32,000 nucleotides of DNA from Stigmatella ashevillensis. GTDB taxonomy: Bacteria > Myxococcota > Myxococcia > Myxococcales > Myxococcaceae. Of this stretch, positions 3,132 to 27,376 are shown in pieces; position 1 is the first letter of the stretch, and each line of letters opens with the position of its first letter. The position numbers and the translations under genes were made by a program. The DNA lies in NCBI RefSeq assembly GCF_028368975.1, contig NZ_JAQNDM010000002.1, positions 3,186,425 to 3,218,424 of the forward strand, given 5' to 3'. The notes under the pieces were generated by a model. It was not told where the DNA came from, did no database searches, and saw only the letters and a program-made list of their open reading frames with translations.

Positions 3132-3141
3132 GCACCGCGGA

Positions 3142-8536: not shown

Positions 8537-8737
8537 ATGACTGGATTCCAGCCCCGATCCGAGGTGAGCGAGTACACGATTCCGGAAGGATGCCCGGGGT
8601 GCGGTGCCGACCTGCCCGTGCGTGTGTCCGAGAAGGGCGCCATGAGCGTGTGCACCCACTGCCACTGGATGGGACGGCCCGTATTGACCGTCACCCACCG
8701 GGGCCTGAGCGTGGAAGTGAAGGCCCTCCAGGCCTGA
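8537..8737 (+). CDS. Small zinc-ribbon-like protein (66 aa), function unknown
   Basis: CPGC...(20 aa)...CTHC forms a four-Cys knuckle pair. Third-position G+C is about 83% by hand count, consistent with coding. No homolog recognised. Confidence 0.5.
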   Translation: MTGFQPRSEVSEYTIPEGCPGCGADLPVRVSEKGAMSVCTHCHWMGRPVLTVTHRGLSVEVKALQA

Positions 8738-8763
8738 TAAGCGCCCAGCCCGCCGATGGCCGC

Positions 8764-9225: not shown

Positions 9226-9239
9226 CCCACCCCTCCTGC

Positions 9240-9875
9240 TCAGAGACGAACGAAGGTGATGCCCTCCAAGGCGTTGGCTTGCGCCAACCGCCGTTGCAGG
9301 ACCACTCGGCTCGGATCCTCATCTACCAGGGAGCCCTCCCGGAGTGCCACCCACTTGCCGACATGGTCTTCCGAGTTCTGGCGGAGCCATTCCGCATTGC
9401 GCGCAAACGGAGAGGCAGTGGCTTCATTCTCTGAATGGACAACCGGTGGCGCGAGCACTTGGGACCACCGCTCCAACGAGGGTGCAGGAGAGGCCTGAGC
9501 CAGAAGTCCCACGAGCTGTCGGGCCTCTGTGATGCGGCCGACCTCCACCAGTGAAGCCACAGGCCCCGCTACACCGCGCTCTTTGAGTGAAGCCAACTCG
9601 GCCTTGATGGCGGCATTCTCCTTTTCCAGCGCCGCGACACGGCCTTCCAGCTTCGTCCGAGGAGCCCCTGAGCGCGCATTTCGCCGCTCCTGCTGATCTC
9701 TGGAACGGCGCAATTTGAGCGCCATGTCCGCCGCGACCTGGGTTTCGGAACGGTTCATGGGCGGTGGAAAAGGGCTCTCTGGCACAAGGGTCTGAGCAAG
9801 CACCTTCTCCCAACTGACGGTCACCGCTTCGGTTTCGACCGGCGGGGCTTCAGGAAGATCCTCAGGCCGTCCCAT
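9240..9875 (-). CDS. Hypothetical protein: disordered Pro-rich N-terminus, leucine-zipper-like coiled coil, small C-terminal beta-rich module
   Basis: Coiled coil LEGRVAALEKENAAIKAELASLKERG. C-terminus is ...HVGKWVALREGSLVDEDPSRVVLQRRLAQANALEGITFVRL. ATG 9875 overlaps the upstream gene by 55 nt. An alternative GTG at 9824 gives a GTGA start/stop overlap with that gene, which is typical translational coupling. Confidence 0.6.
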   Translation of the reverse strand: MGRPEDLPEAPPVETEAVTVSWEKVLAQTLVPESPFPPPMNRSETQVAADMALKLRRSRDQQERRNARSGAPRTKLEGRVAALEKENAAIKAELASLKERGVAGPVASLVEVGRITEARQLVGLLAQASPAPSLERWSQVLAPPVVHSENEATASPFARNAEWLRQNSEDHVGKWVALREGSLVDEDPSRVVLQRRLAQANALEGITFVRL

Positions 9876-10561
9876 ATCGCGCCATCCACTTCATTCAAAA
9901 AGCGGGGAGTCCACTGGAGAGTATAGTTACCTCGGCCTTGAAGAACGAAGCTCTTCCCGGAAGGAGCTTTGCTCTGCTGGGAAATTTCTCTGACGCAACC
10001 ACTCGGCGGGTTGATCGTCCAGACAGAGGGATTCACATTGAGAATCTGCTCCCCTGCTACGACATGCTGTGCTCGCGCTGGGGCCAGTGTGAACCTTAAG
10101 TCCTCGCCCAGGATTAAGTAATTGGCCCTGATCTCCGCATCTACAGGGCGAGTGACAGGCCACAAGGCGCCAAGCCGATCCAGAACACTTGGGAAGCTGC
10201 CCACCGTCCGACTGCTCTCCACCATGACCTCTGGGGGCGAATCGTCCGGGCTACGACTCCAGCGAAAGTCCCAAGTCGCCGTCCCCGGCATGTCCTTGTC
10301 CCAAGCCACCAGTGTGGTCATGAAGGGGCGGAACTGCTCCAACCGCTCCGGGAGCGAAAAGAAGGCAGCGCGGCACCTCTGGCCGTCATCAAGGACTTCG
10401 AGATTCAGTTTGGCAAGAACCTCGTGCCAGTGGGCCAGTTCGGACTGGACCTGGAAACGAACGTGAAGTTTCGAGAGTCCCACGCCCCTGGTCCGGAAGA
10501 AGAAGACCTCGTCTGTGTGCGTGGCATCTTCGGGAAAGGACACCTGGGTTTCCGCGCTCAT
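9821..10561 (-). CDS. Hypothetical protein (246 aa), no recognisable domain; compositionally atypical
   Basis: Uninterrupted ORF with no signal peptide or TM. Uses host-rare codons (two TTA, plus ATA, AGA, AGT). Local G+C is 54% and 57% in two 100-nt hand counts (9901-10100), against 69% in the adjacent PBP1A gene. Confidence 0.6.
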   Translation of the reverse strand: MSAETQVSFPEDATHTDEVFFFRTRGVGLSKLHVRFQVQSELAHWHEVLAKLNLEVLDDGQRCRAAFFSLPERLEQFRPFMTTLVAWDKDMPGTATWDFRWSRSPDDSPPEVMVESSRTVGSFPSVLDRLGALWPVTRPVDAEIRANYLILGEDLRFTLAPARAQHVVAGEQILNVNPSVWTINPPSGCVREISQQSKAPSGKSFVLQGRGNYTLQWTPRFLNEVDGAIWDGLRIFLKPRRSKPKR

Positions 10562-13333: not shown

Positions 13334-14295
13334 GAAGGTTCTAGCGCAGCGCGTTTGAGGGTGTCCTTCAGCTCTGGAGGCAACCTCGCCTCCACCGTCA
13401 CCTTCCCGCCGTGCTGGGGGTGCGGAAATTCGATGCGCTCCGCGTGCAGGAACAAACGCTTCAACCCCCACCGGGCCCGCACATCCCGGTTGAAGGCAAA
13501 GTCACCATACTTCCTGTCTCCAGCCACGGGGTGACCAACAGCGGCCAGATGCCTTCTTATCTGATGGGTGCGTCCTGTCTCGATGGAGCAGGAGAGGAGC
13601 GCCGCCTCGCTCGACTGGCGGATGACCTTCCACCGGGTGAGGGCCTCCTGCATGTTCACCCCCCGGCGGGCCTTGGACTCGGCGGTCTGCTGGTGCTCCG
13701 AGAGGGGAAGTTCGATGACCCCCGAGTCCTTGGGCATCTTGCCCTTGACCAGGGTGATGTAGCGCTTGCGGGCAAGGCCTTCCGTGAACACTTCGGTGAA
13801 GTGCACCATCGCCGGGCGGCGCTTGGCCACGAGGATGACGCCCGAGGTCTCCCGGTCCAGCCGGTGGGCAGGTGAGGCGGTGAAGTCGTTTCTCACCGCC
13901 TTGGGGCCCAGGTAGGCACGCACATAGTCCACCAGGGTTCCCCCGGTAATCCCGCTCCCGGTGTGCACGGCCATGCCGCTGGGCTTGTCCACGGCCATCA
14001 TCCAGTCGTCCTCCAGGAGGATGACCAGCTCGGAGGGGTCCACGGGGGGTGGGGGGGGAGGCAGGCGCTCGCCGCCCTGGGCCGGGCCGAGCAGTTGCTG
14101 CTCATCCCCCCGGATGGCGATGACGTCCCCGGCGACGAGCAGCTGCTCGGGCTGGGCCCGTTTTCCGTTCACCCGGACCTTCTTGACCCGGATCATCTTG
14201 AACAGATGACTGGTGGGCATGTTGGCCAGGCGTTTGCGGAGGTACTTGTCCAGCCGCATCCCCACACTGTCTTCTTCGATTCGGTACTCGATCAT
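13330..14295 (-). CDS. RluA-family 23S rRNA pseudouridine synthase (RluC/RluD-like, N-terminal S4 domain)
   Basis: S4-like MRLDKYLRKRL...VRVNGKRA and catalytic HRLDRETSGVILVAK. ATG 14295 is used here; an alternative GTG lies at 14322. Confidence 0.9.
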   Translation of the reverse strand: MIEYRIEEDSVGMRLDKYLRKRLANMPTSHLFKMIRVKKVRVNGKRAQPEQLLVAGDVIAIRGDEQQLLGPAQGGERLPPPPPPVDPSELVILLEDDWMMAVDKPSGMAVHTGSGITGGTLVDYVRAYLGPKAVRNDFTASPAHRLDRETSGVILVAKRRPAMVHFTEVFTEGLARKRYITLVKGKMPKDSGVIELPLSEHQQTAESKARRGVNMQEALTRWKVIRQSSEAALLSCSIETGRTHQIRRHLAAVGHPVAGDRKYGDFAFNRDVRARWGLKRLFLHAERIEFPHPQHGGKVTVEARLPPELKDTLKRAALEPS

Positions 14296-14340
14296 TTGTT
14301 CTTGGCGGCCGGACCAGAGCACACGAATAATGACCGGTCC

Positions 14341-15801
14341 ATGCCGAAGGCTCCCAGTATCGAGAAGCTCCTCCAGAGCGGTTCAGCGGAGTGGAACAAG
14401 CTCCGCAAGTCCGGACAGGTCTCCACCGACCACACGGGCGCTACCTTCACGCAGCTGTTCTCCGCCAATGCGGACCTCTCGGGCCTAGAGCTCGTGGGCT
14501 CCGAATGGGAGCGCTGCGACCTGTCCAAGATGAACTTCCGCGACGCGGACCTGTCCAACGCCTACTTCCATGGCGGCCGGCTCCAGGACTGTGACTTCCG
14601 CGGGGCCAACCTCGAGGGCGCCACCTTCGAGAAGTTGAAGTTGCTGCGCTGTGACTTCACGGGCGCCAAGGGGCTGGACGACCTGGAAATGGAGGATGTG
14701 GACATGGACCGGGTGCAGGGCCTGGACGGCGAGGAAGCCCCGCCCCCGCCCCCGCCCCCCGCCCAGGGCATCACCGCCTTCACCCGCGAGCAGCGGGAGA
14801 AGGCCATGGGGGCCGCCGCGGCCGCCGTGGCAGGCCCCGCCGCGGAGGAGCTGCCCCCCTTCAAGCCCCAGGATCCTCCGGGCTCACTGCTCTTCCGGGC
14901 CTTGAAGCGGCTCCCGGCGCCGCCCCCCTGGGTGCTGGACGTCCCCGGCCTGCGCCCGTTGCTCCCGCAGCGCCTGCCCCCCGGCTCCTCGCTGGAGGCG
15001 ATGTACCGCGAGGCGGTGAAGACGCGGCTGGAGAACAAGAAGCCCGGGGCGGACCCGGGCGCGGTGGAGCGGGCGCAGAAGGCGCTGCGGCTGGGCGGGA
15101 AGGACTCGGCCGTGGCGGCCATGTACCTGCGCGAGGTGGGCGTGCTCCCGCTGTCGCGCTTCTCCGCGGCCAAGGTGCTCAAGGATGCGCTGCGCGCCGA
15201 GGTGGATGTGGATGATCTGACGGGCTCCATCGACCCGCGGGTGGCCGGGGCGCTCTTGGAGCTGCGGCTGACGCACGAGGTGGTGGAGCACCTGCAAGAG
15301 GCCCGGCGCCGCCTGGCCGCCACGCAGCTCTACACCGCGCTGCTGGAGGCGGGCTTCACCCCGGAGAACAACTGGGACGAAGCGCTGGAGTCGGCCGAGC
15401 CCGCCCTGGAGCTGGCACAACTGGCCACGGGCGATGACCGCAACGCGCTCTTCGAGGCCTTCCAGGTGTTCGCCGCCCTGCCGGACGAGGCCCGGCTGCG
15501 GCGGTTGGCGTACCTGGCCGAGACGGTGACGAACCTGGAGCTGGTGAGCCGACTGCCCGAGGGCATGGAGCCGCAGTGGCTCACCGGGCCCGAGACGCGC
15601 GAGTGCCACGACCGGGAGATGACGTACGTTCAGGCGCTCCGGGCACAGGACATTCCCACCAAGGTGCCCGCCCTGGCCCAGGCAGAGCTCGGCGTTCCCG
15701 AGGGTCAGGTGCCCGAGGACAGCGACGACGACCTGTTCGTCCACCTGCGCTGTGACGTGTGCGGCAAGGAGAAGCTCATCGTTCAATCCCGGATCGACTG
15801 A
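14341..15801 (+). CDS. Pentapeptide-repeat protein with a poly-Pro linker and a long helical C-terminal region of unknown function
   Basis: A(D/N)LxX repeats: ANADLSGLELVGSEWERCDLSKMNFRDADLSNAYFHGGRLQDCDFRGANLEGATFEKLKLLRCDFTGAKGL. These are followed by EEAPPPPPPPAQG. Start at ATG 14341 (residue 127 of the track ORF). Confidence 0.8.
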   Translation: MPKAPSIEKLLQSGSAEWNKLRKSGQVSTDHTGATFTQLFSANADLSGLELVGSEWERCDLSKMNFRDADLSNAYFHGGRLQDCDFRGANLEGATFEKLKLLRCDFTGAKGLDDLEMEDVDMDRVQGLDGEEAPPPPPPPAQGITAFTREQREKAMGAAAAAVAGPAAEELPPFKPQDPPGSLLFRALKRLPAPPPWVLDVPGLRPLLPQRLPPGSSLEAMYREAVKTRLENKKPGADPGAVERAQKALRLGGKDSAVAAMYLREVGVLPLSRFSAAKVLKDALRAEVDVDDLTGSIDPRVAGALLELRLTHEVVEHLQEARRRLAATQLYTALLEAGFTPENNWDEALESAEPALELAQLATGDDRNALFEAFQVFAALPDEARLRRLAYLAETVTNLELVSRLPEGMEPQWLTGPETRECHDREMTYVQALRAQDIPTKVPALAQAELGVPEGQVPEDSDDDLFVHLRCDVCGKEKLIVQSRID

Positions 15802-16437: not shown

Positions 16438-17412
16438 TCAGAAGAGCGAGAGCTGCTGGGGCTTGCCCAGCGTGCGCGCGTCGATGCCTTCCTCCCGCAG
16501 CAGCCGCGCCAGCTCCTCCGCGAAGCCGTGGTGCGTGATGACCTCGCGAGCCCCCGTGGCCTTCACATAGCCCACCAGCGAGGGGCAGTCCGCATGGTCC
16601 GAGAGGGGAAAGGCCACCTGCGCGCCATAGCGATGCGCGGCGCCTGGATCCAACGCCCACCCCGTGAGCACCGCGGTGGCGCGCGGCCACACGGGCGCCA
16701 GGGCCCCCGTGCGCGCCTGATGCGGTGGGAAGAAGAGCACCTCTCCCGGCTGCACCGTCCCCTCGAAGCGCCGCAGCGGCTCGATGCGCACGCCCAGCTC
16801 CGCGTAGAGCTGTGTCACCTCGAAGATGGAGGGGTGCGCCACCAGCGGGAAGCCGCGTCCAGAGAGGTACTTCATCGCCTCCTGGCTCTTGCCCAGGGGA
16901 TAGCCCAGCAACACGGGCACCGCCCCCCGTTCGAGCTGCTGGCGCACCCACGCCTCCACCCTGCCCAGCACTTCGTCCTTCGGCGGAAAGCGGTACCGCG
17001 GATGGCCGAACGTGGCCTCGATGACGAGCGTGTCGCACTCGGCCACCTGCACCGGCTCCGCCGTGAGCGAGGGCGTGACGTTCAGATCCCCCGTATAGAC
17101 GATGCGACGCCCATCCCCCCGGATGACGCGGAGCTGGGCACTGCCCAGGATGTGGCCCGCCGAGAGCAACTCCAACGTCAGGGGACCCAGCTCGAACGGC
17201 TGGTTGTAGGCCACCGCCACCGGGTCCTTCACCCGGCCCAGCCGGTGCGTCATGAAGCGCAGGGTGGCGGCCGTGGCGATGGTCCGCTCATGGCGCGCGA
17301 TGTGGTCCGAGTGCCCGTGGCTGACGAAGGACAGCGGCGTCTTGCGCATCGCATCCAGCGCCAGCGGGGTACCCGTCAGGTGAAGTCCGGTTCGCCTCAA
17401 CTCGACGCTCAT
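16438..17412 (-). CDS. MBL-fold metallo-hydrolase, beta-CASP-like (COG1236-type nuclease/hydrolase)
   Basis: VSHGHSDHI (HxHxDH), SAGHILGS and IEATFG, with a C-terminal PLSDHAD...VITHHG typical of beta-CASP motifs. Start taken at ATG 17412 (MSVELRRTGLHLTG). Confidence 0.82.
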   Translation of the reverse strand: MSVELRRTGLHLTGTPLALDAMRKTPLSFVSHGHSDHIARHERTIATAATLRFMTHRLGRVKDPVAVAYNQPFELGPLTLELLSAGHILGSAQLRVIRGDGRRIVYTGDLNVTPSLTAEPVQVAECDTLVIEATFGHPRYRFPPKDEVLGRVEAWVRQQLERGAVPVLLGYPLGKSQEAMKYLSGRGFPLVAHPSIFEVTQLYAELGVRIEPLRRFEGTVQPGEVLFFPPHQARTGALAPVWPRATAVLTGWALDPGAAHRYGAQVAFPLSDHADCPSLVGYVKATGAREVITHHGFAEELARLLREEGIDARTLGKPQQLSLF

Positions 17413-17502
17413 GGGGAAGCCTGGATATAGCGCGCCTGGGACCGCAGGGGGGGACATGCTCCACGACGCGCCCGCCCGCCCGTCCGCCCTGCCTGCGAAA
17501 CC

Positions 17503-18420
17503 TCAGGCCCCCGCCAGGGGCCGCTCGCGCCAGCGGTCCCACAAGGCCGAGCCCACCTCCGACACCAGCACGCCCAGCACGATGAGGCTGCCCCCGCTCC
17601 ACTCCCGGGGGCCCAGCGTCTCGTATCCCAGCGACACCGAGAAGAGCGCGGCGAACACCGGCTCCAGCGCATAGATGAGGGCCGCGCGCACCGCGCCCGT
17701 GCGGGCCTGGGCCCACGTCTGCACGCTGATCGCGACGGCGCTGCCGAGGACGCCACAGAAGAACACGGCCCCCACGAAAGCCCCTGTCCACGCCACCCGC
17801 GTCTCCACGAAGGGCAGGCACGCCGCCGAGAGCAGCGCCACGCCCCAGAGCTGCACGGCGACGAGCGCGCTGGCCCCTTCCTTCGGCGCGAACCGCCCCG
17901 TCAGGACAATGTGGAGGGCATAGGACACCGAGCCCGCCAGCGTGAGCAGGTCTCCCGAGGAGATCCCCCCGGAGGCCTCCTCGCCCGCGTGCGTGAGAAA
18001 GAAGAGCCCCACGGTCGAGAGCACCACCCCCACCAGCGAGGGGACGCGAGGAACCCGGCGAAAGAGCACCAAGGTCAGCAGCGGAACGAAGAGGACACAC
18101 AGGCCCGTGATGAAGGCCGAGCGCGCGGGCGAGGTGTGCGTCAGCCCCACCGTCTGAAACACGTACCCGCTGAAGAGGAAGAGGGACAGCAGGCCCCCTC
18201 GCCGCAGGTAATCCCCGGAGAGCATCCGCCGCCCCGCCACGGCGCTCAGCACCACGGCCCCCAGGCCAAAGCGCAGCACGAGGAACGAGAAGGGATCTCC
18301 ATGGCCCAACGCGTCCTTCACCACCACGAAGGTGGTGCCCCAAAACACGGTGAGCAGCGCCAGGGCGCCGTCCGCCTGGAGATGGGCGCGACGCTCCCGC
18401 GGTGAAGTCACTTCGGCCAT
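17503..18420 (-). CDS. EamA/DMT-family transporter (about 10 TM)
   Basis: Two EamA-like halves. The sequence is hydrophobic throughout: LLTVFWGTTFVVVKDAL..., ...ALIYALEPVFAALFSVSLGYE... Start at ATG 18420 (MAEVTSPRERRAHLQ). Confidence 0.88.
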   Translation of the reverse strand: MAEVTSPRERRAHLQADGALALLTVFWGTTFVVVKDALGHGDPFSFLVLRFGLGAVVLSAVAGRRMLSGDYLRRGGLLSLFLFSGYVFQTVGLTHTSPARSAFITGLCVLFVPLLTLVLFRRVPRVPSLVGVVLSTVGLFFLTHAGEEASGGISSGDLLTLAGSVSYALHIVLTGRFAPKEGASALVAVQLWGVALLSAACLPFVETRVAWTGAFVGAVFFCGVLGSAVAISVQTWAQARTGAVRAALIYALEPVFAALFSVSLGYETLGPREWSGGSLIVLGVLVSEVGSALWDRWRERPLAGA

Positions 18421-18454
18421 GACGGAGGTCCAGCTAGCACACTTCCCTCGCCCA

Positions 18455-19420
18455 TCAATCCAATGCGCGCTCCAACACCACCAAGGGCTTGCTGCCCCCC
18501 GAGGCATCCCACTCGGCGTTGACCCGCCGGATAAGCTCTGGGGGCGAGAAGCGAAACCCCACCCTCCGGAACGTCCTCAGGGAGGCGGCGTTGTCCTCAT
18601 CGACATCCGCGAAGATGCATTCCTCGCCCTGCTTTCGCGCCGCTTCCACCAGACAGGTAAGGAGCTGGTGGGCCACCCCCATCCTCCGGGCTCTCGGCGC
18701 CACCACCAACGAGCGGACCCAGAGCCCGTCCAGCGCCAGCCCTTCCTCGCGGTAGCTGTCCAGGTAGGCGAACCCACACAGGCGGCCCGCCGAGTCGAAG
18801 GCTCCCGCCGAAGCCCCCACCGCCCCTCCCTCCCGCGCCCACCGGCCCAGCAGTTGGCGGCGCAGGAACACCGAGGAGACCAGGAGCCGTTCCCCGGCGA
18901 ACACCAGGAGCGCGTCCAGATCCTCGGCCCGAAGCAGGCGCACCTCCAGCCGCCCCAACCACCGCGCCCGCACGGGGCGGGACCACCCCGAGAAGGTGAA
19001 GTCCCGCAGCCGCCGAGCCGCGCCCCTCGCCACGGGACGGGCCCACAACGCGGAAGCCAACCGCTGCCCCAGAAAGAGCGAAGGCCGCGTCACGCGGGGC
19101 AAGGGCAAAATCCACCACCCCCGGCGCAGGGCCGTCACACGCCCGAGCGGAACTCCCTCGGGATCTCCGTGGCCCAGCAAGGAGGCCGTCACCAAGGGGC
19201 CCGTGGAAACCACCACGTGCGCGATGAGCCGACGCCCCACCCTCACCAGCGCCACATCGCCCCGGGACAGCTCCTCCGGCCCACAGCGAAGCACCTGGAT
19301 CGAATCTCCGCTGCGCAGCAAGGGATACAGGCTCCGGCCCGCCCCTCGCAGCCAGAGCCGACGGCCCAGAGACGTGGACTCGACGAAGGCCGCGAGATCA
19401 ACCGGGTGTGTGCCAACCAT
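18455..19420 (-). CDS. Fusion protein: N-terminal S24/S26 (signal-peptidase/LexA-like) peptidase domain plus C-terminal GNAT acetyltransferase
   Basis: GRSLYPLLRSGD matches the G-x-S-[ML]-x-P-x-L-x-x-G-D catalytic-Ser box (Ser30). GDVALVRVGRRLIAHVVV resembles the GD...I.HRV strand of His-type S26B enzymes (His68). C-terminal GLWVRSLVVAPRARRMGVAHQLL is GNAT motif A, followed by DNAASLRTFRRVGF. ATG 19420 overlaps the kinase gene by 23 nt. Confidence 0.78.
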   Translation of the reverse strand: MVGTHPVDLAAFVESTSLGRRLWLRGAGRSLYPLLRSGDSIQVLRCGPEELSRGDVALVRVGRRLIAHVVVSTGPLVTASLLGHGDPEGVPLGRVTALRRGWWILPLPRVTRPSLFLGQRLASALWARPVARGAARRLRDFTFSGWSRPVRARWLGRLEVRLLRAEDLDALLVFAGERLLVSSVFLRRQLLGRWAREGGAVGASAGAFDSAGRLCGFAYLDSYREEGLALDGLWVRSLVVAPRARRMGVAHQLLTCLVEAARKQGEECIFADVDEDNAASLRTFRRVGFRFSPPELIRRVNAEWDASGGSKPLVVLERALD

Positions 19421-20165
19421 GAAGCCAGTCCCTCACGAAGCCCGCCGCGGCGGCGTCCTTCCGGAAGACGAACCTGCGGATTTCGACACATGAGAGGATG
19501 CGAACCAACCGCTGGAGCACCTCCCCCTGCGACGCCTCGCCCGGCAGCGGACGGAAGACCTGCGCCATCATCGCCGCAATGGCCTCGGGGGCTGCCACCG
19601 CCTCCAACCGCTCCTCGCCGCCCTTCTCCAGCAACAGCACCGCGGCCAACTGCGCCCGGGCGAGCGACGAGGGCAGATCCAGATCCGAGCAGAACGGGCT
19701 GCCCTCGACGCGCGCCCCGGGGTAGAGCCCGAGCACTTCGTCCGAGAGCACTTCGGCCCCGGCCTCCCGGGCGCACAGCCGGGTGAAGGTGGACTTGCCC
19801 GCCCCGCTGGGCCCGATGGCCACCACCGCCCGTCCCTGGAAGGCCACCCCGGCGGCATGCAGCAACAGGCCTCCCTGGCGCAGCGTGGCCAGTTGCATCC
19901 CCACCCGCAGCGCCAGTTCAGTATCTAGGAAGGCCTGAGGGGGCTCCACCCGCACCACATCGCCCTCTACCCGGAAGCGGGGACCCGAGGGCCGACGAGG
20001 GTCGAGGGGCATGCTCGGCCCCTCGGGCAAGGCCCCCGCCCGGAGACTCAGGCGGGGAGCGCCGTCTTCGGCCAGGAACGGGGCCAACGCGCACCGTGCC
20101 CCTACCTGGGTCAGCAGCCCCTCATCCACTCCCACGCTCCACTCCCCGAACCGCAGTCGCCGCAT
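19398..20165 (-). CDS. HprK-like P-loop kinase (HPr kinase C-terminal-domain family), stand-alone
   Basis: LHAAGVAFQGRAVVAIGPSGAGKSTFTRLCAR..GAEVLSDEVLGL parallels the HprK catalytic core (lHg..v...g.GvLi.G.SG.GKS...L...G..lvaDD). No N-terminal HprK domain is present. Confidence 0.78.
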   Translation of the reverse strand: MRRLRFGEWSVGVDEGLLTQVGARCALAPFLAEDGAPRLSLRAGALPEGPSMPLDPRRPSGPRFRVEGDVVRVEPPQAFLDTELALRVGMQLATLRQGGLLLHAAGVAFQGRAVVAIGPSGAGKSTFTRLCAREAGAEVLSDEVLGLYPGARVEGSPFCSDLDLPSSLARAQLAAVLLLEKGGEERLEAVAAPEAIAAMMAQVFRPLPGEASQGEVLQRLVRILSCVEIRRFVFRKDAAAAGFVRDWLHGWHTPG

Positions 20166-20184
20166 CCGGGACCCTGCCGCCTCT

Positions 20185-20322
20185 TCAGCAGGCCCCCGTC
20201 TCTGGATCGATGATGCAGCTGGGCGTGAAGAGGTCCGGAACGAGAATCCGCTCCGAGCGCACCTGGGGAGGGGCGTAAGCCTTCTTCTTCTCCGCCTTCA
20301 CCGGCTGCACCGTGGTTGCCAT
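20185..20322 (-). CDS. 45-aa candidate precursor/substrate peptide: MATTVQPVKAEKKKAYAPPQVRSERILVPDLFTPSCIIDPETGAC
   Basis: Internal ATG (residue 26) of track ORF 20185..20397. Third-position G+C is 38/45 (84%) by hand count. AAGGAG lies directly upstream. It sits between the giant lipoprotein gene and the kinase gene on the same strand. The 75-nt upstream extension overlaps the giant gene and reads as junk (MEKWTWPWVIVSRIQPGSWC). Confidence 0.6.
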   Translation of the reverse strand: MATTVQPVKAEKKKAYAPPQVRSERILVPDLFTPSCIIDPETGAC

Positions 20323-20325
20323 GGT

Positions 20326-20331
20326 CTCCTT
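20326..20331 (-). promoter_or_regulatory. Shine-Dalgarno (AAGGAG) for the 45-aa peptide gene
   Basis: The minus strand reads GTG TAT TAC TAA GGA GAC C ATG. The SD overlaps the TAA stop of the giant gene. Spacing to the ATG is only 3 nt, which is short. Full AAGGAG sites are uncommon elsewhere in this window. Confidence 0.55.
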
Positions 20332-23300
20332 AGTAATACACCACGACCCGGGCTGGATTCGACTGACTATCACCCACGGCCAGGTCCATTTTTCCATCCC
20401 CGTTGAAGTCCAGAATGGTCAAACTGATTCCAAGCGACGTCGTGGATGCCAGCTTGGACTGCCAGAAGCCATTCTCCTGGGCAAGGTCGAACTCGGCCCC
20501 CGGAATGCCCTGGTTGTAGAAGACGGCCGCGGCGTTCTGCCCGACGACGTTCTGGCCCACGGCGATGTCGACGCGTCCATCTCCGTTCAAGTCCCCCAGG
20601 GCCAGGGCGTTGCCGAAACGGCCGCCACCGACGATCTCCACCGGCGCCGTGGGGAAGCCCGAAGGGCCTCCATCCCGGAACACGAAGACCTTGCTCTGGG
20701 TGGCCGAGGAGGCCACCAGATCCAGCCCCGCGCCCCCCACCAGGTTCACCCCGCCAAAGGCCTCGGTGCCAAAGCCGTTCTGCGAGTTGCCGGTCGTATC
20801 GGGCCCCTGGTGAATCACCTGGAGCGCGTCCGTCGTGGACACGTTCCGGCCCAGGGCGTGAACCGCGGCGCCTGAATAGACATAGAGGTTGTTGACCCGC
20901 TCATGGGAGGCCGGGACGGTGAAATCCGCGACGCCATCGCCCGTGATGTCCCCCAGGCGCACGTAGCCACGGGAGCGTCCGAAGAAGACCATCCCCGTGG
21001 GGGCCGTGAAGACCTTGTCGGACTTGCTCGTGGGCACGACGCAGGCGGAGGTGGCGTTGCAGCCTGTTCCCAAGGCCCGCCAAGCCTCCGGCGTGCGGCT
21101 GTAGAAGAGGTAGACCTTTCCGGGCGTCTCGCCGTGCGAGCTGAGCAGCAGCTCATGAAGCCCGTCCCCGTTGATGTCCTGGATCATCTTCACCGAGCCG
21201 CCCAGCGTGGCCCCGGTGATGGCCGTGTCATGCCGGAACTCGATGGGGGCCGTCGTGTCCAGCACCTGGCCCTTCCGGCCAAAGTAGAGGAACGCCCGGC
21301 CGGAGTTGGACGTCCAGCCACGAGAGCCCACCAGCAGGTCCGCCACCGGCTCCGAGGTGGCGTTGCCGACATCACCGACATCGAAGTCACTCCCATAGGC
21401 TTGAGCGCCCGTCTCCGGGACCGTCAATTCCTGCCGAACCGGCGGGGAGCCCACCGGATCGCTGCTGCCGTAGTACACGTACGCCGAGCCCGGATTGCCC
21501 AGGACGCCTGTCACGATCAGGTCTTCCCTGCCATCCGCGTTCAGATCTCCCCGGGCGGTAATATAGGTGGCGTAGCTGTTGCTCGGGACGCCTGGGTTCG
21601 TCACCGTCACCTGCCGCCAGAAGTTGTCGATCTGTGGCTGCACCGCGAAGGGCGCGTAGTTGCCAATCTCGTCCCGGGGACGGAGCTGGATGGAGTAACG
21701 GGCCAGGGGCGGCAACGTCAGCGTGTAGGCCGTGGACGTGGCAGGCAGCAGCGCTCCCGTTTCCTGCTTCACCTTCCCGCCGAAGAAGGTCGCCTCGTTC
21801 TCGATGCCGTTCAGAAGCTGGGCGTTGACCGTCCACCGCAGGTCATAGCCCACCCCCATGCCGGACAGCCCGTCATCTCCACTCGCCGTCCACGACACCT
21901 GCACCTTGGCCGCCCGCTCCTGGCCGGGCACCAACGCCATCGTCACGGTGGGCGCCGCGGGAGGCACCACGTCCACGGTGGCCGTGACGGTGTGGCGCGC
22001 CGTGTTCCCGGACGCATCCACCACGCGCACCTCGAGCGTGCCATCCGTGTTGTGCGGCAACGTCACGGGAAGCTCCAGGGTCTCCGGCGAGGCGGAGATC
22101 GTGAACTCCGAGGAGACGGAAGCTCCCTTGTAGAGCGCCTGCACCGTGCTGCCCACGCCCTGCGTCACGGTGAGTGTGAACACCGCATTGGCATCCCCGC
22201 CCGGGGACATGTCCACCACGCGGTCCGGTGCAGGAGATGGGAAGAGATAGGCGTTGGTGCTCGCGACGAAGAAGAGCGCCGTGGGGGAGGGAGAGATGGA
22301 GGTGATGAGCGGGGGCGTGATGTCCACCGTCACGTCCACGAAGTCGACAGCCCTCAGCCCCGAGATGTTGAACACCTCCACGGCCAGGCGTGTCTGATCG
22401 CCGTCCGCGAGCGTCACATCGAAGAAGAACGCCCCCGTCGCCGGATCCGCGGTGACGGCATCCTCCGGTGTGGTCGAGCCTCCCTTGTAGAGAATCACCT
22501 CGCGGCCATTGCATGCCGGCGTGATACCGGCCAGGCGGTACTGCAACCCCGCCGCCGAGGGGTCCAGATCGTCCTGGGCAAGCAACGTGGCCACCGGCTC
22601 ACTCGGCGTGGTGAGCGTGATGGCACAGCCAGGGATTTTCACATCGACGTTGGCCTTGGAATCACTGCCCGCGTTTCCAGCGGTATCACGGGCCACGGCC
22701 GAGACGGTCTGCACGCCCACGGGGAAGTTGAGCGTGCCTTGCGCGACTCCCGAGACGACCGGCAGGGTCCCCACCACCGCGGCGGGAGCGCTCCCCACCT
22801 GCGAGAGGATGCTCACCGTGCTCACGTCCCCTCCTGCCACATTGACCTGAACGGGGATGTCCGTGTTGTCGTAGACAGCGCTCGCCGCGGGGGCCACCAG
22901 CGTCACGGTGGGGGCTTCCAGATCCACCGTCAGGGTCCGGACCACCGAGGTCTCGTTGCCCGAGGTGTCCACGGCAACCACCGAGAGCGTGTACTCCGTC
23001 TTGCCTGTGCCCGGCACGGTGAACTCATGCGTGGCCACCAGCTCGGAAGGCGTCAGCGACACCGGATTTCCCCCCGGGGAGAGCAACATCCGCACACCGC
23101 CCGCGCCCACGTCCGCGCTCGTGTTGATGGCCGCCCGGAGCTGGAAGCCGACGGCCGTCGAGCCGTCATCCGCGAGGCCGAACTCGGTGCGCGTGGGCGC
23201 GCTCACCACCAACGAAGGCGGGACTCGGTCCAGGCGGAAGGCGAAGAAGGCCGCCGTGTTGAGCGGATAGAAGGGGGTCGGATTGAGCACCCGGTTCTGA

Positions 23301-26134
23301 TTGCCCGCAGCGTCCGTCACGGTCACGACGAGCGCGTAGTCCGCCTCGATACCGGTGGGCATCGCATCGAGGGAGACGGTGGCCAGGCCACCGCCGGCAT
23401 TGCCCTGGCCATAGACGATGCCGGGATTGCTGGCGTTGCGAACCTGGACCGGCCGCCCATCTTCCAGACCGTCAATGGTCACCCGGAGCTGCACGGAGCC
23501 TGTGGGCCACTCGACGGCATTCAGCCGCCGATCCCCGTTGACGTCTCCCACCAGTTCCACGGCACGCACCACCGGCTCGGTGCTGTCCACGGTGATGTTC
23601 ACCGACTGAGACACGGAGATGGCCCCGTCGTCGAGAACGGCGCGCAGGGCGTAGCGCCCATCGGGGTAGGTGAAATCCGGGGTGAAGGCCGGCACGTTGG
23701 CGGCCAGGGTGTACCAGCCCGAGCCATCCCGGCAGGGCGCGGCATCCTGGCTCGGCGCCACGCTCGCGCAGATGTCCACGACGGCGTTCGCCGAACGTCC
23801 ATTCGCGGCGTACTTCAGGGGCGCCTGGATGCCCGACTCCTCGGGCGTGACGTCGGAGTTCACGACGTAGACCGGGGCGGGGGAAGCCGCGGGAATCTCC
23901 AGGGCGATGTTGCCCGGCTGGGTGTCCACCAGGAGCAGCACCGTGGCGCAGGCCACCGTGCCTCCGGGGCCGATGAGCTCGGCGCGCAGCACGTTGGAGC
24001 CCTCTTCCAGCTCCACGGTGTTGAACCGCTTCGTCCGCTCGTTCGCGGCGACATCCACCACGGCGATCTCGGTGGCCCCGCGCAGCAATCGCAGCTTGCT
24101 GGCCGCCTGGGTGTCCACGCTCAGGGTGACCGAGACACTCAACCCGCCGTTGGGCAGCACGATGCCATCCGTGGCCCCCAGGTACCGGCCAATCGCGGGG
24201 GTCTCGAAGGCCAGCGAACTCGGAGAGAAGGCCAGGGTCAGCGCCCGGACTTGCTCGCTGGTGTTGCCCGCCAGATCCGTGGAGGCGACTTGCAACAGAC
24301 ATTCGCCGCTGAGCGGCACGGAGACGTCCCTCAACACGAGCGCCCCGTGGTCATCGGCCTGTCCCGCCACCCCCGCGGCCAGGGCGCACCCCGTGACGAG
24401 CACCGAGGCGTACGGCTCGGTCTCCACCTCGAGGGCCACTTGCATGCCCGGAGCCAGAGACGTGTCGTTGAGCCCGAAGCCCAGAACAGTCTCTCCGGCG
24501 GGCACACCGCGCACCTGGAACGCCAGCACCGGCGGCGTGGAGTCCAGCTCCAGGGAGAGCAGCTGACTCGTGGCGCCCCCTGGACAGGAGGCCAGGAGCC
24601 GGTACGCGCCATCGCTCTCCAAGAGGAGCGAAACCAGCGCCGACCCCGAAGATGCGACGGCGGTGCTCCGTCCCCGCTCATTGCCATTCACATCCAAGGC
24701 CACCACGGTGACCGGCCCGGCCCCCGACTCCACGCGGACCGAGGTGTTCATGCCCGTGGTGGGAATCAGGGTGCCATTGTCCGGCGAGATGATGCGGCAG
24801 ACGGGCTGGCCCGTGGTGACCGTGACGGTCTCCGCCAGGCACTGCTCCAAACCCGCTGCATTGCGGACACAGGCCTGAACGGCATTGGCGCCCCCCGCCA
24901 GTTGCACGGTGAAGGCCGCCTCGCGCCCACCGTTCGTCACCGCCCGCTGCGGCTGGGCGAACTTGCCGGTGACGCTGGTGAAGAGCGTCACCTGGGTGCC
25001 AGGAGGCAGCGAGTCCACCTGGACGGTCACCGGTACCTGCACGCCGTTGTCGAGCCGGCCGTCCACCGGATCCTCCGAGAGGCTCTTCGGCACCACCAAT
25101 TTGAGGGTTGGCGTCGTGCTGGCCACCGTGACGGGAACCTGCCGGGTGGAGACATTGCCCCCCGCATCGGAGACTTTCAGCGTGAAGAGGTAATCCCCAT
25201 CCACCGGCACCGTGACGGCGGGGAACGTCACGCCTCCGGAAATGACGGGGGCGGACAGATCCGGCGCGCCAACCCGGGACAGGGTGGCCAACACACCGGG
25301 CTCGGTACACCCCACGGTGGCCTCCACCCGGAACGTCGTGGACGCCACCGCCGCCACTGGCCAGGCCAGTTCCACGCGCGGAGACACCGTGTCCAACGTG
25401 ATGTGGCGCCGGCCGGACGTCACCTCGTCATCGCCATTGCGGACCACCGCGTAGCACTGGGCTTCCTGGGACTCGCATGCGAACTGGGACAGCGTCACCT
25501 CGACCTGGGTGGCCCCATTGCCCGCCACGGTGAAGTCCGTGGGAGGCACCCCACACGCCTGCTCGCAATAGATCGTGCCCTTTCTTCCCGACAGGCCCAC
25601 GGCATTCACGCTGAAGCGCAGCTGGTAGCCGGGCGAATCCGGGTTCGCGTCATCCGCCTCGAGCAGCACCTCGCCTTCGGGGGGCTGCGTCAGATCCACC
25701 GATGGCGGCTCCGAGGTCACCGTGACGCTGATGCGCTGGGTGGCCGTGCGCCGCGAGCTGGCCTCCTCCACCGTCACCTGCAGCACGTTGGTGCGCGACT
25801 GCAACAGCGCCGCCGGGAAGCGGGCCGTGTCCCCCTCGATGAGGGCCTTGGGCCCCTCCGTCCATCCCTGCTCGGACGGCGTGCGCACCTCCAGCTTCGC
25901 GCTGGCCAGCTTCACCGCCCGGCCCGAGGTGTCCCGGGCCCGCACCACCACCTCGTGCTGGAAGCCGTCGGTGGCCGTGTCCTCATCATCGGAGAGCACC
26001 AGCCGCTGCCCGTCCACGGGCTTCTCGAACCCCACCTCCAGCTCCGACTCCACCGGTGGCTCGCCGCAGCTGCATCCGGACGCACTCCACAGCGCGAGCC
26101 CCATCAACAGCCACTGCCACATCGATCGGCGCAT
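20330..26134 (-). CDS. Giant (about 1,934 aa) secreted protein or probable lipoprotein: tandem bacterial Ig-like domains, an FN3-like domain, and a C-terminal seven-repeat FG-GAP/VCBS beta-propeller
   Basis: Signal peptide MRRSMWQWLLMGLALWSASGC from ATG 26134 (GGGAGA SD 4 nt upstream); an alternative GTG 26203 overlaps the PqqD stop. Recurrent Ig-domain ends carry D.AGN/D.SGN (VSDAGGN, STDLAGN, VTDAAGN, AVDTSGN, ARDTAGN, VVDASGN). The last ~430 aa (about 20333-21625) carry FG-GAP calcium-loop repeats: GDLNADGREDLIV, QDINGDGLHELLL, GDITGDGVADFTV, GDLNGDGRVDIAV, LDFNGDGKMDLAV. Confidence 0.9.
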   Translation of the reverse strand: MRRSMWQWLLMGLALWSASGCSCGEPPVESELEVGFEKPVDGQRLVLSDDEDTATDGFQHEVVVRARDTSGRAVKLASAKLEVRTPSEQGWTEGPKALIEGDTARFPAALLQSRTNVLQVTVEEASSRRTATQRISVTVTSEPPSVDLTQPPEGEVLLEADDANPDSPGYQLRFSVNAVGLSGRKGTIYCEQACGVPPTDFTVAGNGATQVEVTLSQFACESQEAQCYAVVRNGDDEVTSGRRHITLDTVSPRVELAWPVAAVASTTFRVEATVGCTEPGVLATLSRVGAPDLSAPVISGGVTFPAVTVPVDGDYLFTLKVSDAGGNVSTRQVPVTVASTTPTLKLVVPKSLSEDPVDGRLDNGVQVPVTVQVDSLPPGTQVTLFTSVTGKFAQPQRAVTNGGREAAFTVQLAGGANAVQACVRNAAGLEQCLAETVTVTTGQPVCRIISPDNGTLIPTTGMNTSVRVESGAGPVTVVALDVNGNERGRSTAVASSGSALVSLLLESDGAYRLLASCPGGATSQLLSLELDSTPPVLAFQVRGVPAGETVLGFGLNDTSLAPGMQVALEVETEPYASVLVTGCALAAGVAGQADDHGALVLRDVSVPLSGECLLQVASTDLAGNTSEQVRALTLAFSPSSLAFETPAIGRYLGATDGIVLPNGGLSVSVTLSVDTQAASKLRLLRGATEIAVVDVAANERTKRFNTVELEEGSNVLRAELIGPGGTVACATVLLLVDTQPGNIALEIPAASPAPVYVVNSDVTPEESGIQAPLKYAANGRSANAVVDICASVAPSQDAAPCRDGSGWYTLAANVPAFTPDFTYPDGRYALRAVLDDGAISVSQSVNITVDSTEPVVRAVELVGDVNGDRRLNAVEWPTGSVQLRVTIDGLEDGRPVQVRNASNPGIVYGQGNAGGGLATVSLDAMPTGIEADYALVVTVTDAAGNQNRVLNPTPFYPLNTAAFFAFRLDRVPPSLVVSAPTRTEFGLADDGSTAVGFQLRAAINTSADVGAGGVRMLLSPGGNPVSLTPSELVATHEFTVPGTGKTEYTLSVVAVDTSGNETSVVRTLTVDLEAPTVTLVAPAASAVYDNTDIPVQVNVAGGDVSTVSILSQVGSAPAAVVGTLPVVSGVAQGTLNFPVGVQTVSAVARDTAGNAGSDSKANVDVKIPGCAITLTTPSEPVATLLAQDDLDPSAAGLQYRLAGITPACNGREVILYKGGSTTPEDAVTADPATGAFFFDVTLADGDQTRLAVEVFNISGLRAVDFVDVTVDITPPLITSISPSPTALFFVASTNAYLFPSPAPDRVVDMSPGGDANAVFTLTVTQGVGSTVQALYKGASVSSEFTISASPETLELPVTLPHNTDGTLEVRVVDASGNTARHTVTATVDVVPPAAPTVTMALVPGQERAAKVQVSWTASGDDGLSGMGVGYDLRWTVNAQLLNGIENEATFFGGKVKQETGALLPATSTAYTLTLPPLARYSIQLRPRDEIGNYAPFAVQPQIDNFWRQVTVTNPGVPSNSYATYITARGDLNADGREDLIVTGVLGNPGSAYVYYGSSDPVGSPPVRQELTVPETGAQAYGSDFDVGDVGNATSEPVADLLVGSRGWTSNSGRAFLYFGRKGQVLDTTAPIEFRHDTAITGATLGGSVKMIQDINGDGLHELLLSSHGETPGKVYLFYSRTPEAWRALGTGCNATSACVVPTSKSDKVFTAPTGMVFFGRSRGYVRLGDITGDGVADFTVPASHERVNNLYVYSGAAVHALGRNVSTTDALQVIHQGPDTTGNSQNGFGTEAFGGVNLVGGAGLDLVASSATQSKVFVFRDGGPSGFPTAPVEIVGGGRFGNALALGDLNGDGRVDIAVGQNVVGQNAAAVFYNQGIPGAEFDLAQENGFWQSKLASTTSLGISLTILDFNGDGKMDLAVGDSQSNPARVVVYY

Positions 26135-26199
26135 TCGTCTCCCACCCTCTCCAGCGGCAGGCCGTGGGCCTGCGGCTCGCGACATCAGCGCAAGGGACC

Positions 26200-26550
26200 T
26201 CACGGCCCCAGCACCAGCACCTTCTTCGCCACGAGGAGCCGGAGGAAGGCGACCGTGTCCGCTTCACACGCCTCCGGTTCCACCTCGAATTCGTCACACA
26301 GCACCGCCACGATGTCCGCCACCGTCCGGCGGCCATCCACCAACTCCACGATGCGCTCGGCCACCTCGGACACCTGACCCCGGGCGTCCTCGAACAGGTG
26401 CAGGTGCTCATCGGGCCCCGCAGCCATCAGCCGCCCACCCACGCGCTGCACCCCCGTCTCCGGATGCAGCCGAGGCACGGCGCGCAGCACCTCCCGGCCC
26501 GCCTCCGCGGGAGCTTTCGTTCCATCTTTGTTGGAAACGAATCCAGCCAC
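26200..26550 (-). CDS. PqqD-family protein (RiPP recognition element-type peptide chaperone)
   Basis: ...HLHLFEDARGQVSEVAERIVELVDGRRTVADIVAVLCDEFEVEPEACEADTVAFLRLLVAKKVL fits the PqqD winged-helix pattern (LN.tg..iw.l.DG.rtv.eI...l..ey.v......Dv..fl..L). GTG start with a GGGAGA SD 6 nt upstream. First gene after a 250-bp divergent intergenic region. Confidence 0.8.
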   Translation of the reverse strand: MAGFVSNKDGTKAPAEAGREVLRAVPRLHPETGVQRVGGRLMAAGPDEHLHLFEDARGQVSEVAERIVELVDGRRTVADIVAVLCDEFEVEPEACEADTVAFLRLLVAKKVLVLGP

Positions 26551-26672
26551 TTGAATCTCCCGGAGGCCTGCCCCCCGGCCTGGAGCTTCCCGGCCTCACG
26601 GAATCTGAAGGCATGCTATCCGCGAAGATCCGGCCCGGCCAAATCCCTGATCTCCTCAGTCCCCTCACGGAT

Positions 26673-26744
26673 CAAGGTTTTGGAAGAAATCCCCGGAACT
26701 CCCCAGGGCCCGCACAAGGATTTGGGCGGAAACCGCGAAACCGC
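26673..26744. promoter_or_regulatory. Direct repeats in the divergent control region upstream of the PqqD operon
   Basis: CAAGGtTTTGG at 26673 and CAAGGaTTTGG at 26715 are 42 bp apart; the 27-nt units match 19/27. A tandem GAAACCGC GAAACCGC sits at 26729-26744. Confidence 0.35.
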
Positions 26745-26800
26745 TATGACGGGGCGGCGCCAGACTCCCACGAGGGAGGGCGACACGATGGGGAGGGCGG

Positions 26801-27376
26801 ATGAACACGACGCCGGAAGGCAACATGGCGCCACGGCAGGGCTGGTGGAGCCGCAATTGGAAGTGGGTCGTTCCTGTTGGCTGTCTGACACCCGTGCTGA
26901 TGTGCGGGTGTTTCGGGGCGCTCGTCTTCTACTTCGTCACGAGCACCATCAAGTCCACGGATGCCTACCAGCAGGCCGTCACCCTCGTTTCGGCGAACCC
27001 CGAAGTCCAGGAGGCGCTGGGCACCCCCATCGACTTCGGATGGCCGCGGGGCTCCGTGAACGCCACAAACGGAGAGGGCCGCGCCAGCGTCAGCGTGCCC
27101 GTCGAAGGCCCCAAGGGCAGCGGGACCTTGCGCCTCGAAGCCGTCTCGGAGGGCGAGAATTGGACCTTTGATCTGCTTCAAGTGGAGGTCCCCGGCAGGC
27201 CGGCCATCGATCTGATGGATCAGGTGGGCGGACGCCCGGAGCCGGAGCTGGAACCCCTCCCGGACGACGAACCGCCGCCCACGATGGATGAGGAGATGCT
27301 TCCCCCGGAAGAGGAAGTCCTCCCCCCCTCCGAAGAGGAAGCCCCCGCCAAGAAGGGCTCCGAGATCGACCTGTAG
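26801..27376 (+). CDS. Membrane-anchored Coa1-like (cytochrome oxidase assembly factor 1 family) protein with an acidic Pro/Glu-rich tail
   Basis: [16 protein letters not shown]... TM segment, then [77 protein letters not shown] matches the bacterial Coa1-family pattern. GGGGAGGG SD lies upstream of the ATG. Confidence 0.72.

Follow-up and report, generated by a model that had tools for sequence, protein, structure and literature searches.

Phosphorylation of a ribosomally made peptide by an HprK-like kinase has been described for the lasso cluster bsf of Bradymonas sediminis, in which BsfK phosphorylates core residue Ser3 of the precursor BsfA and the PqqD-type protein BsfB1 accelerates this reaction (Duan et al. 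2023, PMC10368454). The BsfA leader contains the B1 recognition motif Y(-17)xxP(-14)xL(-12) and an unusual Ile(-2), the phosphorylated Bradymonadales type having Ile or Val at a position where lasso leaders otherwise have Thr; related clusters of the paeninodin/ThcoK type are cited in the same work, which also reports that the bsf cluster is "bordered at one end by an FG-GAP repeat protein", presumed by the authors not to be involved (PMC10368454). Here we analyse a 32,000-nucleotide stretch of the genome of the myxobacterium Stigmatella ashevillensis (hereafter the window) and, within it, a 45-codon open reading frame (ORF) surrounded by genes for a PqqD-family protein, a giant FG-GAP lipoprotein, an HprK/ScmC-like P-loop protein and a fusion of a peptidase-like domain with a GNAT acetyltransferase. 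On the basis of comparative sequence data, we consider it probable that the ORF is a precursor gene for an undescribed ribosomally made and post-translationally modified peptide (RiPP) of Myxococcota, of a variant that depends on a RiPP recognition element (RRE), with the individual chemical steps much less certain than this overall assignment. Two other groups of proteins are relevant for comparison. The SynChlorMet cassette (TIGR04248-04251), on which a literature search found no paper, consists of ScmC, the PqqD homolog ScmD and the radical SAM/SPASM proteins ScmE/ScmF. GNAT N-acetyltransferases tailor modified peptides, for example in the microviridin, goadsporin and albusnodin pathways.

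The ORF extends on the minus strand from ATG 20322-20320 to TGA 20187-20185 and is translated as MATTVQPVKAEKKKAYAPPQVRSERILVPDLFTPSCIIDPETGAC, which agrees with the coordinates and sequence given in an earlier note on this DNA, as does the position of an AAGGAG at 20331-20326, 3 nt 5' of the ATG and overlapping the TAA (20332-20330) of the upstream 1,957-codon ORF. That note described the ORF as unannotated; in fact, GenBank already holds the identical protein, unnamed, as "hypothetical protein POL68_15655" of Stigmatella sp. ncwal1. The G+C content of third codon positions (GC3), which had been offered as a sign of a real gene, is indeed 84% (38/45 without the stop codon, 82.6% with it) and thus gene-like next to the 0.82-0.88 of the neighbouring genes, but it discriminates poorly: because 26% of all 138-nt segments of the sequence reach this value, it is weak evidence for a gene. 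Conservation, not composition, is decisive. A search of 5.8 billion proteins identified 29 homologs of 45-50 amino acids (aa) in Stigmatella, Hyalangium and Myxococcaceae metagenome-assembled genomes, an intact homolog, MTTRETRKQRRPYRPPIVRSEKILVANLFASKDPGQGCEPNCDFAPPDGEL, is also encoded in Archangium, and all 10 metagenome contigs retrieved with a degenerate leader DNA pattern encode the peptide in the same gene context. In a comparison of nine syntenic loci by Nei-Gojobori counting, the synonymous divergence (dS) of the peptide gene is ~0.9 and the overall ratio of nonsynonymous to synonymous divergence (dN/dS) 0.28, the bias to synonymous sites proposed earlier as a check; by region, dN/dS is lowest over residues 16-35 (0.12), intermediate in the basic N-terminus (0.38) and highest over residues 36-45 (0.56). 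All indels in these nine loci are in frame and all copies are intact, so the absence of frame-disrupting changes, also proposed as a check, holds at every syntenic locus examined. We conclude that this 45-codon reading frame is a genuine gene, conserved and under purifying selection. A chance, untranslated frame in G+C-rich DNA might be suspected from its short length and from a GC3 shared by about a quarter of segments of that size, yet this has almost no chance of being right and is already contradicted by conservation, given intact copies in more than 20 loci, the low dN/dS over residues 16-35 at a dS of ~0.9, indels that are all in frame and the presence of a ribosome-binding site. Scans of Pfam, NCBIfam and PADLOC matched no family to the peptide or to its distant counterparts, and a scan for promoters and terminators inside the gene block gave no convincing signals.

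The bipartite organization proposed in the earlier note is supported by a drop in conservation after F32. In the alignment of the 29 homologs, the invariant columns are M1, P7, K13, Y16, P19, V21, R22, S23, E24, L27-F32, S35, C36 and C45; they include the three positions of the previously recognised YxxPxL-like motif of lasso type. The distribution of constraint is the reverse of what had been expected, a conserved C-terminus behind a drifting leader: it is the region around the motif that is held most tightly and the C-terminus that drifts. BsfA, translated from its published sequence, reads MEMKKAKNKISRKLIYKKPQLTYHSTLAAIIR followed by GTSGNEVDG..., with a 32-residue leader and a core beginning G33-T-S35. 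The window peptide and the precursor of the CHARACTERISED bsf system both have a basic N-terminus, Y16, P19, L or V at 21 and a 32-residue leader, in residue-for-residue register, such that T33-P-S35 of the former lies opposite G33-T-S35 of the latter and S35, invariant in 29/29 homologs, falls on the phosphorylated Ser3. Since the register of lasso leaders is Y(-17)/P(-14)/L(-12), the core is predicted to start at T33 and not at S35, as had been assumed, which would put L31 at -2 and make S35 the third residue of the core, matching BsfA. The "Thr at -2" assigned earlier to T33 does not survive this comparison, residue 33 being variable (T/Q/M/S) and the -2 position by register being the invariant, hydrophobic L31, which resembles the Ile/Val(-2) subtype.

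When 1.84 billion representative proteins were searched with a profile, 16 clusters matched. One, a 394-aa repeat protein, probably did so by chance; the remaining clusters are peptides of 38-55 aa that share the leader KKPYRPPxVRSEKILVPxLF and have very different C-termini, with two Cys, four Cys or none. In an alignment of 20 family members, the residues equivalent to Y16, P19, V21 and L31 are again invariant, and a Ser or Thr occurs within 3 residues after the LF motif in 20/20. The two-Cys core described in the earlier note thus stands for the close relatives, in which Cys36 and Cys45 are invariant, and not for the wider family. The pattern as a whole, a small ORF accompanied by PqqD and tailoring genes and combining a conserved leader with a variable core, is that of a generic RRE-dependent precursor. 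Two other processing sites were considered and rejected. AYA/PP, already argued not to be a cleavage site, is part of an AxA pattern that is not conserved (KKPYAPP, KKVYTPP, RRPYRPP), and small residues at -1/-3 before the first Cys (TPS/C, ALA/C, VLA/C) are found in six loci only, the rule being broken by ATQ/C, SHN/C, PTR/C and by Cys-less cores, so that the lasso register is preferred.

On the minus strand the genes follow in the order PqqD, giant FG-GAP lipoprotein, peptide, 255-aa P-loop protein, 321-aa peptidase-like-GNAT fusion, EamA, MBL-fold protein and MOSC. The first five are arranged identically in Hyalangium, other Myxococcaceae and Archangium. The order is also kept in a lineage ~45% identical (loci L028, L032 and L034), in which the core contains four Cys and the FG-GAP protein is shorter, and the more divergent locus L024 has the same five components with the last two genes swapped. 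The peptide ORF of L024, which was not called, extends past the start that was called for the peptidase-like gene; because of this overlap, that start was probably placed too far upstream. The co-occurrence of the PqqD, FG-GAP, peptide, kinase-like and peptidase-like genes is therefore observed directly, in keeping with the earlier grouping of the peptide with PqqD, kinase-like, peptidase-like and GNAT functions, which are conserved together in every related locus with sufficient flanking sequence; a literature search found no paper on this gene set. The recognition-element gene had been called adjacent, which is inaccurate: it sits 5.9 kb upstream of the peptide, beyond the FG-GAP gene. A locus in Myxococcus xanthus (L022/L023 8293-11034) is collinear with window positions 17503-27376 and has the order ETF, Coa1, peptidase-like-GNAT fusion, EamA, MBL, MOSC, pentapeptide protein, RluA and PBP1A. 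PqqD, FG-GAP, peptide and ScmC-like genes are all absent from it together and, being jointly missing, behave as one unit (the module). EamA, MBL and MOSC were rejected as members of the cluster, for they are kept in M. xanthus, which lacks the module. The peptidase-GNAT fusion is likewise kept there, at 61% identity, without the peptide.

At larger distances, peptides with related leaders are found beside ScmC, PqqD and radical SAM/SPASM genes (L013, L015, L017 and L019), with profile E-values of the distant-locus peptides between 3e-4 and 2.6e-3 among 1,414 small ORF segments. In L013, from a distant member of Myxococcales, the order is ScmC, PqqD, radical SAM, FG-GAP and small ORF; the latter contains YQAPRVDQSG and two Cys, a family resemblance at the motif level only (profile E 7.5). 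These loci suggest that the Stigmatella type is a branch without a radical SAM maturase and with the peptidase-GNAT fusion. The cluster in L015 (9786-10471, plus strand) pairs ScmC with radical SAM/SPASM and has no PqqD gene; a 175-aa predicted membrane protein is encoded there between ScmC and the 53-aa precursor MSTEQGRGRRLPYVPPKIESEMIQDLSAGGCGKCPTGGVDTSQCPPEDPQSTS. In L020, from Krumholzibacteria, an uncalled small ORF at ~7800-7990 on the minus strand, with MKKAYERPELKTTEIKFGVFGDYGTDNSGGGCDEGG... and a YxxPxL-type leader, lies near an ScmC-like gene (2514-3362) and a gene for a 1,342-aa S8 peptidase/CARDB/FlgD_ig protein; it may represent another type of precursor.

The discrete PqqD protein scores 49.6 bits against the PF05402 cutoff of 23.4, gives weak NCBIfam matches to lasso_PqqD_Bac and ScmD (20.5 against 100 bits for ScmD) and is 27% identical to BsfB1 over 98 aa (E 4e-5). 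An alignment of 54 ScmC-like homologs shows conservation of H103, of the P-loop (G118-T126) and of D142 of the 255-aa protein, and these residues align to the core of L. casei HprK/P. These are the elements of the PEPCK/HprK fold, a His, a GxSGxGKS P-loop and a downstream Asp, and the AlphaFold2 (AF2) model of the protein (pLDDT 95.6) retrieved ATP-PEPCK first (3e-7) and HprK/P next (1e-4) in a Foldseek search. An hhalign comparison of the ScmC-like profile with BsfK gave a probability of 98.3% and an E-value of 2.6e-14 over 146 columns. Homologs of the protein carry Pfam PF27840 ScmC, and the protein itself matches NCBIfam HprK_rel_A (TIGR04352) with E 1.5e-6 and 27.6 bits, the cutoff being 200, and ScmC with 16.7 bits, the cutoff being 125. 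Because the validated kinase BsfK scores only 25.7 bits on HprK_rel_A, a match as weak as that of the window protein, this cutoff is uninformative for the branch. Judged by these alignments, the kinase-like and PqqD proteins of the window are homologous to the biochemically validated pair BsfK/BsfB1, in the former case across the catalytic domain. The likeness to SynChlorMet lies in the PF27840 homologs and in the distant relatives that pair ScmC, PqqD and a radical SAM/SPASM enzyme with a similar small peptide; the window differs in lacking radical SAM and in its low ScmC and ScmD scores. GenBank often names ScmC-like homologs (P0031, P0035, P0047, P0052 and others) "potassium transporter TrkH", which, for soluble P-loop proteins of the PEPCK/HprK fold, looks like a propagated misannotation.

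The 321-aa fusion protein consists of an N-terminal putative S24/S26-like domain, a helical linker and a GNAT domain. The latter is well supported by Pfam and by PDB profile and Foldseek matches to GNATs, among which the N-alpha-acetyltransferases Ard1, RimI and NatF are structural neighbours. In the AF2 model (pLDDT 85) residues 21-106 are all-beta, and the Foldseek search was dominated by the GNAT domain. The N-terminal domain is connected to signal peptidases through a stand-alone S26B-type peptidase of 171 aa encoded beside the ScmC/radical SAM cluster of L019, to which it is 32% identical over 127 aa (E 2e-9; hhalign probability 95%, E 3.7e-8) and which passes NCBIfam TIGR02228 (archaeal-type signal peptidase I) with 53.2 against 51.85 bits. 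The alignment pairs GRS30LYP with GTSMQP and AH68VV with VHRI, placing Ser30 and His68 at what we take to be the positions of the catalytic residues in Ser/His signal peptidases. As in S26B signal peptidase I of the Sec11/SipW type, the elements GxS(L/M)xP ... GD(V/I) ... xH(V/R)(V/I)V occur in the same order; the window domain differs in having no membrane anchor, in its fusion to a cytoplasmic acetyl-CoA enzyme and in a predicted F/T site that is not AxA-like. The domain is a likely but not secure S24/S26-like peptidase. The protein should be cytoplasmic, since no N-terminal hydrophobic helix or membrane anchor is present in the AF2 model and the peptidase-like domain is joined to an acetyl-CoA enzyme. 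Signal peptidases and enzymes of the S24 or S26 type go unmentioned in a 2023 review of leader peptidases for modified peptides.

Ser30 and His68 are intact in 65/84 full-length homologs, a count that ignores phylogeny. The 19/84 with substitutions (S to G/C/D and H to Q/R, in several combinations) retain an intact GNAT domain and all belong to the Myxococcus/Corallococcus/Pyxidicoccus group, from which the peptide and ScmC-like searches returned almost no named matches, the exception being a ScmC-like protein of Pyxidicoccus xibeiensis. Every verified module-bearing locus, including Archangium and L024, keeps both residues, and a single module-less locus, that of M. xanthus, was inspected for this comparison. 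Retention of the dyad together with the module points to the peptidase-like domain, more than the GNAT, as the part tied to the peptide. Like the GNATs of other RiPP pathways, that of the window is encoded in a precursor cluster; it differs in being fused to a putative leader peptidase and in that the fusion survives in a genome without the peptide.

The gene content also bears on whether the product could be a lasso peptide. In favour of this, the motif Y(-17)xxP(-14)xL(-12) of lasso leaders is present in the window peptide at the proper spacing, with V at the last position, and the genes for a PqqD protein and an HprK-like kinase that accompany it recall phosphorylated lasso clusters. However, no B2 transglutaminase-like protease and no asparagine-synthetase-like cyclase were found in the window (Pfam, NCBIfam) or among the called genes of related loci, and the lack of lasso protease and cyclase argues that this is not a lasso peptide. 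In place of the B2 protease, C cyclase and ABC exporter of bsf, the cluster has the S26-like peptidase-GNAT fusion. The core, which in contrast to that of BsfA is short (13 residues), Cys-flanked and variable, does not allow a ring of 7-9 residues with a threadable tail: with T33 taken as the first residue, the acidic positions are D7 and E9 (D39/E41), which leaves a tail of 4-6 residues, and cores of the family are too variable for a fixed ring. A genuine lasso precursor is accordingly a highly improbable reading; the earlier note had likewise doubted a normal lasso peptide. Linkage of Cys to Asp/Glu/Thr carbons by a radical SAM/SPASM enzyme encoded in trans, giving a thioether of the sactipeptide/ranthipeptide type, would fit the C-x-x-D and E-x-x-x-C spacing of the core and the pairing of similar precursors with radical SAM/SPASM and PqqD genes in distant clusters. 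Such maturases are confined to the distant loci L013, L015, L017 and L019; none is encoded in the 32-kb window (Pfam/NCBIfam) or in syntenic loci of the Stigmatella/Hyalangium/Archangium type, and some cores of the family have no Cys, which makes this reading very unlikely.

The strict association of the peptide with the giant FG-GAP lipoprotein had been overlooked in the earlier note. The FG-GAP ORF has 1,957 codons from GTG 26203, with a likely start at M24 (26134; MRRSMWQWLLMGLALWSASGC...). In all loci of the Stigmatella/Hyalangium/Archangium type a gene of this kind, encoding ~1,950 aa, lies directly upstream of the peptide, and in 12 related loci the spacer between its stop and the peptide ATG is 5-11 nt. 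FG-GAP genes stand beside the precursors of both the window and bsf, the difference being that in the window the gene is inside the cluster and directly upstream of the precursor. The FG-GAP protein of L013 (11725-16506) is a collinear, 24%-identical homolog of the window protein. It is conceivable, and we regard it as unlikely, that the peptide acts as a small partner whose translation is coupled to that of the FG-GAP protein (a subunit, ligand, assembly factor or regulator) and not a released product, in which case residues 16-32 would be functional rather than a discarded leader, PqqD would act as a chaperone and the kinase-like protein as a regulator. The close spacing, which extends to the divergent L013 and L024, would be accounted for, as would the best conservation of residues 16-32 alongside a highly variable, sometimes Cys-less C-terminus, the location of the L017 peptide beside a different beta-propeller protein and the FG-GAP gene bordering the bsf lasso cluster of Bradymonas. 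It is harder to reconcile with L015 and L019, in which peptides with related leaders accompany ScmC and radical SAM without an FG-GAP gene, and with the hydrophilic peptide having no signal sequence while the FG-GAP protein has a lipoprotein signal; leader removal is favoured by the in-register match to the leader of a genuine lasso precursor and by the presence of a dedicated peptidase-like domain. A scheme in which PqqD, the HprK-like kinase and the S26-like peptidase make a modified peptide that works with the FG-GAP lipoprotein, whether as a dedicated ligand, as a cofactor-like insert of its beta-propeller or through covalent attachment to it, is in our judgement slightly more doubtful still; if true, the pairing of a modified peptide with a protein partner could also apply to the FG-GAP gene of Bradymonas and the beta-propeller gene of L017.

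For the precursor assignment, which we prefer, a pathway can be outlined by analogy. The discrete PqqD protein would bind the YxxPxV leader, as its homology suggests, and by analogy to BsfK/BsfB1/BsfA the HprK/ScmC-like protein would phosphorylate a Ser or Thr among the first core residues, most likely Ser35, core residue 3. The cytoplasmic Ser30/His68 domain of S26 type would remove the leader near F32/T33, replacing the lasso B2 protease, and the fused GNAT may acetylate the new N-terminus or another amine. More speculatively, the two Cys could form a disulfide after export. No macrolactam or lasso ring and no thioether would be expected, as no lasso cyclase and no radical SAM gene are encoded in the window.

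Several points weigh against this pathway or against the precursor assignment as a whole. The evidence is all comparative, and because every module-bearing locus comes from Myxococcota, the synteny partly reflects shared ancestry. The FG-GAP gene has no role in the proposed pathway, which also offers no explanation for the 5-11-nt spacer, an arrangement that suggests translational coupling and functional pairing with the FG-GAP protein. As the peptidase-GNAT fusion is kept in M. xanthus, it has a role, original or acquired, that does not depend on the peptide. In direct searches its N-terminal domain reached no Pfam or NCBIfam peptidase threshold (Peptidase_S24, E 0.25) and PDB profiles gave no match, so that the S26-like assignment is transitive, made through one protein that passes TIGR02228 by 1.3 bits. 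The F32/T33 bond is unlike a classical signal-peptidase-I site, which has small residues at -1/-3. The ScmC-like protein is far below the NCBIfam cutoffs for HprK_rel_A and ScmC. Finally, the two Cys appear not to define the class, some cores of the family having none.

Table 1. Positions of the features discussed, in the window unless a related locus is named.
Feature	Position	Strand	Remarks
Precursor peptide gene	20185..20322	-	45 codons and stop; translation confirmed, homologs, intact ORFs
AAGGAG Shine-Dalgarno-like site	20326..20331	-	Overlaps FG-GAP gene stop codon
Predicted leader, residues 1-32	20227..20322	-	Lys-rich N-terminus, then Y16-x-x-P19-x-V21-R-S-E-R-I-L-V-P-D-L-F32; invariant columns, BsfA register
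YxxPxV motif, residues 16-21	20260..20277	-	Invariant Y16, P19, V21; predicted lasso-type PqqD recognition motif
Predicted core, residues 33-45 (TPSCIIDPETGAC)	20188..20226	-	Conservation falls after F32; dN/dS 0.56
Ser35 codon	20218-20220	-	Predicted phosphorylation site; aligned with BsfA core Ser3
PqqD-family protein, predicted recognition element	26200..26550	-	Discrete; 116 codons from GTG, start uncertain; PF05402 E 5e-13
FG-GAP/bacterial Ig-like lipoprotein	20330..26134	-	Pfam FG-GAP, FG-GAP_3, Big_13
HprK/ScmC-like P-loop protein, predicted peptide kinase, 255 aa	19398..20165	-	Weak HprK_rel_A/ScmC matches, fold, BsfK homology
P-loop GPSGAGKST, residues 118-126	19788-19814	-	Conserved in homologs
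Fusion protein, 321 aa	18455..19420	-	N-terminal S24/S26-like domain, helical linker, C-terminal GNAT
Putative S24/S26-like peptidase domain, residues ~19-108	19097-19366	-	Ser30, His68
GNAT acetyltransferase domain, residues 157-321	18458-18952	-	PF00583 50.5 bits, cutoff 20.7
Histone-deacetylase-family protein	1947-3131	+	Seen in radical SAM check
GAF-domain histidine kinase	2803-5646	+	Seen in radical SAM check
Ser/Thr protein kinase	7029-8435	-	Seen in radical SAM check
ORF at pentapeptide-repeat position	13963-15801	+	By position in syntenic loci only
Peptide ORF of L024, 65 aa, uncalled (MAVVERAESARRREKKSYRPPAVASLTLSELPPLLMVTCTPGQEFCATCGNCRPIGACPPDPLDC)	L024:8817-9014	+	Six Cys; starts at FG-GAP stop codon
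FG-GAP gene of L024	L024:3505-8826		Directly upstream of peptide gene
PQQ_2/CBM96 beta-propeller gene of L017, 767 aa	L017:11564-13867		Directly after peptide, instead of FG-GAP

Elsewhere in the window, the EamA ORF (17503-18507, minus strand) would share 53 nt with the 3' end of the GNAT gene if it began at its first ATG, and its start is probably further downstream, for instance at MAEVTSPRE...; M. xanthus, which has no module, also carries this gene. The MBL-fold protein at 16438-17457 on the minus strand scores 211 bits on TIGR04122 (ligase-associated DNA-damage-response exonuclease), below the cutoff of 325, and no ligase gene was seen adjoining it. The ORFs at 3757-4986 (minus), 8503-9498 (plus) and 9821-10561 (minus) had no Pfam match.

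What is proposed here is not a categorically new mechanism; the system is a relative of the phosphorylated lasso systems. The pathway predicts phosphorylation of Ser35, cleavage at F32/T33 and a shift of +42 Da, and the analysis corrects the widespread naming of kinase-like proteins as "potassium transporter TrkH". If the assignment is true, the locus would define a new family of ribosomally made modified peptides in myxobacteria, in which the lasso trio of leader, recognition protein and kinase is reused without the lasso protease and cyclase. An S26-type domain would then serve as a dedicated cytoplasmic leader peptidase fused to a GNAT, of which we found no earlier case. The invariant position of the ~1,950-aa FG-GAP gene between PqqD and the precursor hints, in addition, that peptide maturation may be connected with a protein of the cell surface in these social bacteria.

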